A stretch of 64,000 nt of DNA, taken from contig PNKW01000005.1 of assembly GCA_013822695.1 (NCBI GenBank), positions 1,863 through 65,862 on the forward strand. Direction: 5' to 3'. A program made the position numbers and the translations under genes. Of this stretch, positions 7,938 to 52,796 are shown one piece after another. Within the stretch, counting starts at the first letter, position 1. Each line of letters opens with the position of its first letter. The notes beneath the pieces are model-generated. The model was given only the letters and a program-made list of their open reading frames with translations. It was not told where the DNA came from and did not search any database. The stretch is from Erythrobacter sp. GTDB lineage: Bacteria; Pseudomonadota; Alphaproteobacteria; Sphingomonadales; Sphingomonadaceae.

Positions 7938-7953
7938 TGTTTCACGTGGAACA
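7938..7953. other. parS: parS centromere-like site (ParB binding)
   Basis: TGTTTCACGTGGAACA, one mismatch to TGTTTCACGTGAAACA; the palindrome extends to AA/TT flanks; intergenic between convergent genes. Confidence 0.85.
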
Positions 7954-51586: not shown

Positions 51587-51661
51587 GCTGCTGTAGCTCA
51601 GTGGTAGAGCGCACCCTTGGTAAGGGTGAGGTCGGGAGTTCAATCCTCCCCAGCAGCACCA
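51587..51661 (+). tRNA. tRNA-Thr(GGT)
   Basis: GCTGCTG/CAGCAGC acceptor stem, D-loop AGTGGTA, anticodon arm CACCC-TTGGTAA-GGGTG, T-loop GTTCAA, encoded CCA. Confidence 0.97.
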
Positions 51662-51737
51662 TTCTCGCCCGCGCATTCCCATCCGGGAACACAGCGGCGC
51701 CGCGCCGGACGAACGCCTAGGCAGCGAAGACCAGTGC

Positions 51738-52040
51738 TCACGACTTCAGCGAGCGACAATTCCAAAGGGTGACGACCCCTCGATCGCGGTCGGCTGTGAA
51801 AACGAAAACAATGCTCGGAAGGCGAACTAAATTCGGGCTTTCGAACACGAGCATTTCCGCAATCGACGGGTGAGGGACACCGGCCAGAGCTGGGTCTGTC
51901 TCTGCAAGTTGTTGGAAATTCAATAGAAGCTCGTCGAGCCCGAATGGATCAAACTTGGCCGATAGACGCGCGAAGGCTATCTCGAAAAGCTCCGAGACTT
52001 CGCACACCCAAGGGTGCTCCTGACGATCTCTTAGCTTCAA
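51738..52040 (-). CDS. Uncharacterised RelE/ParE-like protein, candidate toxin
   Basis: VSELFEIAFARL..DELLLNFQQLAETDP..G..VFES..LPSIVFVF..D..V.L fits a RelE-like beta-alpha-alpha-beta-beta-beta layout. Likely start is GTG 52007 (AGGAG 9 nt upstream) or TTG 52040, both inside the antitoxin gene. Confidence 0.6.
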   Translation of the reverse strand: MKLRDRQEHPWVCEVSELFEIAFARLSAKFDPFGLDELLLNFQQLAETDPALAGVPHPSIAEMLVFESPNLVRLPSIVFVFTADRDRGVVTLWNCRSLKS

Positions 52041-52572
52041 CTTCCTTCATTCCATCTTCGGCAGCATCGAACGCTTCTGGCGAGGGTTGCATAGGGAATA
52101 GCAACATAGCCGTGTGATATTGAATCACGCCACCCATGTCCGCCATTTCCCACGGAATCTTATGAGAAAATTCGCTAATACTTTTGGCCGTGTTCTTCCG
52201 GCAAACGAAGTCGACTATATCAGAAAGAAGTGAAAGTTCTTGCTCACTTAGAATTCCATCTGGCGCTGGAACCAAAGCGTGATATTCTTTTTTGTAATAT
52301 CCATGGTATTCGACCGTATCGGTACGAATATCGCCGGCTCTTTCCATATCCCTAAGCGCAAAAAGCAACTGATCGGAAGTTGGGCCGTTTGGCCTTTTCC
52401 TAAAAGTAGCACCCGTAACCGGCAAACGATGGTTTGCGTAGGATATCATATCTAGGAAATATAGAATTTTGTTTAGCTTGACCGCCCCAAGGTCTTCGGG
52501 GTCGCAACCGCGTGCAGCGTGCAAAATTACCGCGCGCATTTTCTCACGATCATACTGCATCGGCTGGATCAT
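51949..52572 (-). CDS. Panacea (DUF4065) antitoxin domain protein
   Basis: LGAVKLNKILYFLD..VTGATFRKRPNGP..SISEFSHKIPW. Start is placed at ATG 52572 because the upstream GTG lies within the promoter. Confidence 0.85.
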   Translation of the reverse strand: MIQPMQYDREKMRAVILHAARGCDPEDLGAVKLNKILYFLDMISYANHRLPVTGATFRKRPNGPTSDQLLFALRDMERAGDIRTDTVEYHGYYKKEYHALVPAPDGILSEQELSLLSDIVDFVCRKNTAKSISEFSHKIPWEMADMGGVIQYHTAMLLFPMQPSPEAFDAAEDGMKEVEAKRSSGAPLGVRSLGAFRDSLRASIGQV

Positions 52573-52578
52573 ATCGCG

Positions 52579-52607
52579 AACATACACACAATGTTATCCA
52601 CAGTCAA
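52579..52607 (-). promoter_or_regulatory. sigma70 promoter with a perfect DnaA box in its spacer
   Basis: Minus strand TTGACT-N17-TATGTT, 6 nt before the ATG (leaderless); TTATCCACA at 52594-52602. Confidence 0.6.
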
Positions 52608-52796
52608 CCTATAAGTCTCTGATTCAGAGTAGAAGTTTGAATCGGATTTCAACCACTTACCAGAGGGAGCTCAAGTTTTCCCCAAGGGAAGAGTACGCAG
52701 TTCATCCACTCCCCCACCCCCCAAAAGTGCCAATCCGCCCCGCCCCCCCACTCGGCTATCCCCTCAAGCCACACAGGCAAGCCGGGGAGAGGCGCT

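Follow-up and report, generated by a model that had tools for sequence, protein, structure and literature searches.

The promoter of a toxin-antitoxin gene pair in Erythrobacter sp. holds a perfect match to the binding site of the replication initiator DnaA, which raises the question of whether this match is an operator that connects the gene pair to the replication machinery of its host or a word that arose by chance in an AT-rich promoter. The gene pair is located in a stretch of 64,000 nucleotides that was analysed as a whole (the window). The first gene of the pair, panA, is preceded by the following elements:

52607-52602, minus strand: -35 hexamer TTGACT (direct reading and consensus scan).
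Minus strand: spacer of 17 nt between the -35 and -10 hexamers (direct reading).
52594-52602, plus strand: perfect DnaA box TTATCCACA, which reads TGTGGATAA on the coding strand.
52584-52579, minus strand: -10 hexamer TATGTT (direct reading and consensus scan).
52572, minus strand: start of the ATG codon of panA, separated from the -10 hexamer by the 6 nt CGCGAT.
52572, minus strand: predicted transcription start, leaderless, at the A of the start codon (from geometry alone).
52617-52629: palindrome CTCTGA-T-TCAGAG.
52637-52652: palindrome TTGAA-N6-TTCAA.

Counted from the A of the ATG as +1, the DnaA box TTATCCACA occupies positions -30 to -22 and has the last base of the -35 hexamer in common with it. 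A promoter consensus scan returned the same pair of hexamers, with 9 of 12 positions matching. Our preferred reading, which we hold tentatively, is that the 9-mer is a genuine DnaA box, maintained by selection and situated in the spacer of a sigma-70-type, leaderless or near-leaderless promoter that would drive a panA-toxin operon on a mobile islet. A weaker pair from the same scan, ATAACA-18 nt-TATGAT, overlaps the first one; it would start transcription at a second ATG (52560) and was not preferred because this ATG is not kept in one of the related loci (L099). An SOS-box-like sequence, GTTC-N7-GATC, overlaps the -10 hexamer and is common only to the window and L099; it is one mismatch away from the alphaproteobacterial LexA repeat. 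Folding of the promoter region gave no indication of DNA or RNA structure (z-score -0.69), and the only Rfam match was a tRNA.

The description of the promoter, the box and the two palindromes in the earlier note on this DNA agrees at every coordinate with our rereading of positions 52560-52660, and the leaderless geometry that it proposed recurs in homologs, with the -10 hexamer about 6-10 nt from the start codon and no Shine-Dalgarno sequence. The distance from the -10 hexamer to the first codon is 6 nt in the window, L099 and L101 and 7-10 nt in several other homologs that are devoid of a Shine-Dalgarno sequence, and a spacing like that of the window is also found in L018, L023 and L026. 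These -35/-10 pairs were scored automatically across the homologs; the output was noisy and only the clear cases were used. Five members of the clade to which the window belongs (see below) have a GTG at the first codon and an ATG four codons later, and several distant homologs possess leaders of 20-50 nt with a Shine-Dalgarno sequence. For panA itself, the arrangement fits a promoter that produces a leaderless transcript or one with a very short leader.

The two genes behind this promoter are:

51949-52572, minus strand: panA, encoding an antitoxin of 207 amino acids with a Panacea domain (PF13274 SocA_Panacea, E = 6e-11, residues 33-141, above the gathering score).
51738-52040, minus strand: toxin gene with a TTG start, encoding 100 amino acids with a predicted RelE/ParE fold (model and conserved neighbourhood).

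Since the Panacea domain (PF13274/DUF4065) is an antitoxin domain (PMC8832971), the label 'Panacea toxin' that had been given to the first gene is wrong, and the toxin is the product of the next gene. The structural model of PanA consists of a folded core (ca. residues 8-158) and a low-confidence C-terminal tail (160-207), and a domain search recognised no DNA-binding domain in the protein. The core gives weak fold matches to the C-terminal domain of DarG (7yk3_B) and to winged-helix DNA binders of the PadR and RTP types (E = 0.08-0.5); a weak PADLOC match to DarG (E = 0.011) points the same way as the fold match.

The toxin reading frame adjoins panA in homologs with PanA identities down to 40%. 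Its TTG start is invariant in all 42 distinct loci compared, and the GTG eleven codons downstream, which is a frequent choice of gene callers, is replaced by GTA or ATA in several loci. The most probable start of the toxin gene is thus 52040, which gives an overlap of 92 nt with panA (51949-52040), the two proteins being encoded in different frames. In these 92 nt, conservation is higher in the toxin frame (LKLRDRxxxPW) than in that of PanA. Searches of Pfam, NCBIfam, PADLOC and PDB sequence profiles gave no match for the toxin sequence. An AlphaFold2 model based on 34 homologs (mean pLDDT 88.4) shows a predicted beta-alpha-alpha-beta-beta-beta fold, as in solved RelE/ParE toxins. The top 34 PDB fold matches of this model are all toxins of the RelE, HigB, YoeB, ParE, YafQ or PfiT type (target-normalised TM 0.55-0.80, probability up to 1.00); they include Mycobacterium tuberculosis RelE2 and RelE1, HigB2, YoeB, ParE2 and YafQ, with RelE-type structures ranking first and ParE2 also matched, both the RNase (RelE) and the gyrase-poison (ParE) branch being represented. 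Residues W11, P50 and G54 are invariant and R4, E20 and H57 are conserved at 90% or more, and these residues do not map onto a known catalytic set. On the basis of the model, the partner of PanA is predicted to be a toxin of the RelE/ParE superfamily.

Similar to the PanAT type II systems (Kurata et al. 2022, PMC8832971; Ernits et al. 2023, PMC10440598), the locus combines a Panacea antitoxin with an adjacent small toxin; ParE-type partners are among the listed PanT toxins, and a disordered C-terminal tail of the antitoxin is found here as well. Unlike in PanAT, the predicted toxin has no Pfam or NCBIfam model and its invariant TTG start lies 92 nt inside panA, and the family is alphaproteobacterial, often located beside IS1595 transposases and provided with an upstream palindrome that contains GANTC. 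The SocAB system of Caulobacter is of type VI, SocA being the ClpXP adaptor for the clamp-binding toxin SocB. It shares with the present pair the Panacea domain of the antitoxin and the alphaproteobacterial host, whereas the partner here has a predicted RelE/ParE fold and no result connects it to SocB or to the sliding clamp; the analogy to a replication block of the SocAB kind that had been drawn for this locus has no footing in the present results. A second, unrelated Panacea-domain gene occurs in the window at 33950-34477. Its start is led by a Shine-Dalgarno sequence and is devoid of a DnaA box, and a sequence upstream of it, TAAGTCCCATGTTGA, resembles the distal arm of the palindromic element described below.

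The gene pair lies on a short segment of deviating composition, of which the borders are given by:

51587-51661, plus strand: tRNA-Thr (GGT), left border of the islet (ARAGORN; Rfam tRNA, 73 bits).
51669-52785: low-GC islet of 1.1 kb, ca. 44-56% GC in a genome of 67% GC (composition profile).

The islet sits between the tRNA-Thr gene and an SDR gene, and similarity to genomes of the same genus stops at about 51661-51668. In two closed same-genus genomes (L104 and L106) only 105-205 nt separate the tRNA from the SDR gene, and a panA gene is found in none of 36 genomes of the genus, which indicates that the islet was acquired. The closest homolog outside the genus (L003/L083-86, 78% identity) is a syntenic ortholog at the tRNA-Thr/gpmA/purE site. 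In a further closed genome of the genus (G003) the tRNA-Thr/SDR site is occupied by a different insertion, ca. 880 nt long and containing an ORF of 195 amino acids (L103, 621-1501). This site may be an insertion hot spot.

Transposase genes of the IS1595 family adjoin the PanA-toxin module in at least 20 loci (L087, L089, L090, L077, L095, L022, L026, L027, L014 and others), either preceding it on the same strand, where their stop codon falls within the distal arm, or following it in convergent orientation; in L022, two inverted copies of the transposase gene surround the module. The genome of the window contains no IS1595-type transposase, and positions 52661-52700 resemble the remnant of a transposase 3' end. 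A second weak box was considered in the far-upstream segment GGGGAAAAC / GGGGATAAA and rejected: because this segment aligns to the 3' end of the IS1595 transposase gene in related loci, a remnant is a more probable explanation for it than a binding site. The islet was likewise rejected as an oriV or oriC, no cluster of at least three near-perfect boxes within 600 bp being found in the whole assembly. A parS-like site with one mismatch, TGTTTCACGTGGAACA, is located at 7938-7953, 44.6 kb from the locus (about 0.01 such sites are expected in the window), and the distance between parB and the syntenic locus is 68-111 kb in six closed genomes of the genus, so that the region was described roughly correctly as parS-proximal.

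How much weight can be given to the box depends on the frequency with which it occurs by chance. The copy at 52594-52602 is the only perfect DnaA box in the window; a mononucleotide model for 64 kb at 67% GC predicts about 0.10, in agreement with the approximately 0.1 per window estimated earlier, and for the 1.1-kb islet (ca. 48% GC) the expectation is about 0.01. The whole genome (3.16 Mb) holds seven perfect boxes as compared to about five expected from base composition, and one occurrence is therefore not beyond chance. Five of the seven are outside ORFs according to a rough ORF mask, and 150 permutations of the same composition gave a mean of 3.4 occurrences, 39% of them outside ORFs; the bias of the genomic boxes towards non-ORF positions is suggestive only. 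Since a single genome gives no statistical support, the weight for the box comes only from the comparison of homologous promoters.

The search yielded 99 PanA homologs, and 50 distinct upstream regions were gathered from genome, metagenome and run assemblies; the metagenome scan produced nine loci when it was done by alignment and none when a single protein was used. No homologs were found on plasmids. In the PanA tree, the window falls within a clade of eight lineages (support 100/99). The 15-mer TTGACTGTGGATAAC, composed of the -35 hexamer and the box, is identical and in the same register in four of these eight (the window, L102, L100/101 and L099), and the proteins of the lineages with the identical 9-mer are 72-77% identical to that of the window. 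The spacer bases beside the box differ in all four (ATTGTGTG, TCTTAG, CATTCTGA and CTTCTGTG), and the remaining spacer has diverged in every lineage of the clade. The relaxed consensus of the DnaA box is TTWTNCACA. In L003/L083-86 the promoter reads TGTGGAAAA, i.e. a box TTTTCCACA that has one mismatch and still matches the relaxed consensus; L097/98 shows two mismatches, and L074 and L006 have lost the box. Outside the clade, the spacer of L004 likewise contains a perfect box, situated 22 nt from the AATCA motif as in the clade. None of the remaining homologs, whether from Sphingomonadales (62-71% identity) or from other Alphaproteobacteria (40-53%), has the box. The 15-mer also occurs in viral contigs, where none of the 75 matches adjoins a PanA or toxin homolog; these were taken as chance.

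Conservation of the box upstream of homologous modules, which the earlier note had named as a check on its proposal, gives a mixed result: the box is kept together with its register in the closest clade, and about 40 of the 50 distinct homologous promoters have no box, which marks it as something added within a clade that does not characterise the module family. Mean pairwise identity in the clade alignment is 0.67 in the box window, as compared to 0.50 over the non-coding columns as a whole and 0.72 over the first 60 bases of coding sequence. The box window reaches only rank 19 among 120 non-coding windows of 9 nt, as conservation is even higher in the -35 block, of which the TTGACT hexamer is the most conserved non-coding block of the alignment, and in the upstream arms. 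The conservation of the box is an unbroken continuation of that of the -35 hexamer and may in part be due to constraint on the promoter, and since the eight lineages of the clade are related, the comparison comprises few independent events.

According to the strongest competing explanation, the box has no DnaA function, originated once by chance in an AT-rich promoter and was kept by shared ancestry and by the constrained -35 hexamer. The rank of the box window is in line with it, as are the approximately five perfect boxes to be expected from composition alone, the large part of the family that is devoid of a box, and the decay of the box in L074, L006 and L097/98, where both genes remain open and alignable. 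We nevertheless regard this explanation as somewhat unlikely: all nine bases are identical in four lineages with proteins of 72-77% identity while the other spacer bases are scrambled, a second perfect box is found in L004 outside the clade, and the conserved word is the exact DnaA consensus and not an arbitrary 9-mer. The decay in three of the eight clade members, together with the absence from about 40 of the 50 promoters, indicates that the box is dispensable. Our reading of the alignment is that the box is lineage-specific and appears to be held against drift in several lineages and to be dispensable in others.

A protein that could occupy the box is present in the host. Its DnaA (486 amino acids, contig C20) contains the sequence GGRDHSTVIHA and thus the intact RDHSTV DNA-contact signature of domain IV. 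Of the other six perfect boxes in the genome, one precedes the start codon of ccrM by 11 nt (C16:11991-11999) and another is situated between ftsA and ftsZ (C43:18558-18566). The region upstream of ccrM also holds two GANTC sites. The Caulobacter-type G-box TGATCCACA occurs in 33 copies genome-wide as compared to about 10 expected, and in 7 of the 11 copies of TTATCCAC in the whole genome the next base is A. DnaA is capable of activation as well as repression of transcription, and the E. coli dnaA gene is autoregulated through a DnaA-box operator. In Caulobacter, ftsZ is a known DnaA target, and DnaA is mainly known there as an activator, of gcrA, ftsZ and podJ (PMC8203912). The DnaA-box promoters of these genes and of E. 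coli dnaA share with the panA promoter the 9-mer TTATCCACA in or next to a sigma-70 promoter. They differ from it in that the controlled genes here are a horizontally acquired toxin-antitoxin pair and that the box, a candidate site, is inside the spacer between the -35 and -10 hexamers. The review of DnaA-dependent transcription (PMC8203912) describes no DnaA-controlled toxin-antitoxin promoter (the word 'toxin' is absent from it), and none appeared among the titles and abstract openings listed by a search of the full-text literature.

If DnaA binds at the panA promoter, the bound protein would extend over the 3' edge of the -35 hexamer and over half of the spacer, on its upstream side, and in this way be in competition with RNA polymerase. 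Abundant DnaA would then keep the operon down, and the operon would be released once DnaA becomes scarce or is titrated. RNA polymerase should be impeded by a protein at -30 to -22, from which we infer that a DnaA operator on this near-leaderless promoter probably represses. We consider it improbable that DnaA binds the box and activates, or merely marks the promoter or is titrated by it, without any repression. Activation would be in keeping with the main role of DnaA at gcrA, ftsZ and podJ of Caulobacter (PMC8203912), and a helper could be useful at a promoter of which the -10 hexamer is imperfect, as it is in the window (TATGTT) and in several other members of the clade; the overlap of -30 to -22 with the -35 hexamer and the spacer would however be typical of a repressor and not of a class I or II activator, and a single box makes a poor sink for DnaA.

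Apart from the box, two inverted arms are found upstream of the -35 hexamer, which in the window are represented by:

52612-52624, minus strand: proximal arm AATCAGAGACTTA, which fits the IHF consensus WATCARNNNNTTR and contains a GANTC (52621-52625).
52639-52643: distal GANTC, candidate CcrM methylation site, 71 nt upstream of the ATG.
52649-52659, minus strand: distal arm TAAGTGGTTGA (family consensus TAA(G/C)YNNTTGA), inverted relative to the proximal arm.

The arms, TAA(G/C)YNNTTGA and TCAANNNCTTA(G) / TCAANNNCTTAG, are common across the Alphaproteobacteria. Each of them fits the IHF consensus WATCARNNNNTTR, with a forward match at the proximal arm in 26 of the 50 homolog promoters. The palindromes at 52617-52629 and 52637-52652 are local versions of this family-wide element, which spans 52612-52659 in the window, was seen in loci L003-L034 and L074-L102 and occurs in about 40 of the 50 homolog promoters. 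As to whether it represents IS terminal repeats, a search for a matching inverted copy at the other end of the transposase genes found none. As to the factor that binds the palindrome, IHF, PanA through a winged-helix-like core and another factor are all candidates.

Type II toxin-antitoxin operons are usually regulated by their own antitoxin, which acts at operators overlapping the promoter. This custom, and the weak fold matches of the PanA core to PadR- and RTP-type winged-helix binders (E = 0.08-0.5), would favour the view that TGTGGATAAC is the operator of a different protein, for instance of the PanA-toxin complex or of an unknown regulator, and resembles a DnaA box by coincidence, but we consider this the least probable explanation: an autoregulatory operator should track the protein throughout the family, as the upstream palindrome does and the clade-specific box does not, the box is not palindromic, a match to the DnaA consensus at nine of nine positions is unlikely for an unrelated operator, and autoregulation by Panacea proteins has been doubted (Ernits et al. 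2023, PMC10440598). With no recognised DNA-binding domain in PanA, and with Panacea being probably not an autoregulator according to the same study, control of the operon by a host factor is plausible.

A second candidate for such control is the GANTC that is found between the arms, 64-90 nt upstream of the start codon, in 40 of the 50 distinct homolog promoters. Its centre base is free (T16, A9, C4 and G3 among 32 strict matches), as would be expected of a site that CcrM methylates. The genome encodes a full-length CcrM homolog (model NF050803, E = 1.7e-179), and GANTC is 3-fold under-represented genome-wide. CcrM-sensitive promoters of Alphaproteobacteria are exemplified by Caulobacter dnaA and ctrA P1 (Collier et al. 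2007, as cited in PMC8203912). The features in common are the GANTC itself with its free centre base and fixed upstream distance (in 40 of 50), the presence of CcrM and the depletion of GANTC. The locus differs from such promoters in the position of the candidate GANTC, which at about 71 nt upstream of the start is outside the -35/-10 region, and in the host, where the Pfam GcrA family (PF07750) gave no match in the genome of the window and a positive result in the Caulobacter control.

Taken together with the preferred reading of the 9-mer as a DnaA box, the palindrome with its GANTC would be the family-wide control element, to which the box would have been added in one sub-lineage. A broader proposal, which we put forward as a rather unlikely one, is that the family, which moves together with IS1595 transposons, has passed its transcriptional control to the replication and cell-cycle machinery of the host, GANTC methylation being read by every member and the DnaA box being a later supplement of that one sub-lineage. 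According to this proposal the GANTC would be placed between two inverted arms resembling IHF sites, and the module would sense the passage of the replication fork and the level of the initiator directly.

Whereas toxin-antitoxin operons are usually self-regulated, the antitoxin described here has no recognised DNA-binding domain and the promoter contains candidate sites for host replication factors, namely a DnaA box in the core promoter of one clade and a conserved GANTC upstream in the whole family. Should DnaA not bind, this would still be a clear example of a perfect consensus match that persists beside a -35 element. If DnaA binds, it would provide a documented case of a mobile toxin-antitoxin module that is tied directly to the replication initiator, and the pair may be switched by replication status; the natural promoter variants with and without the box would then allow testing of what such a coupling achieves.
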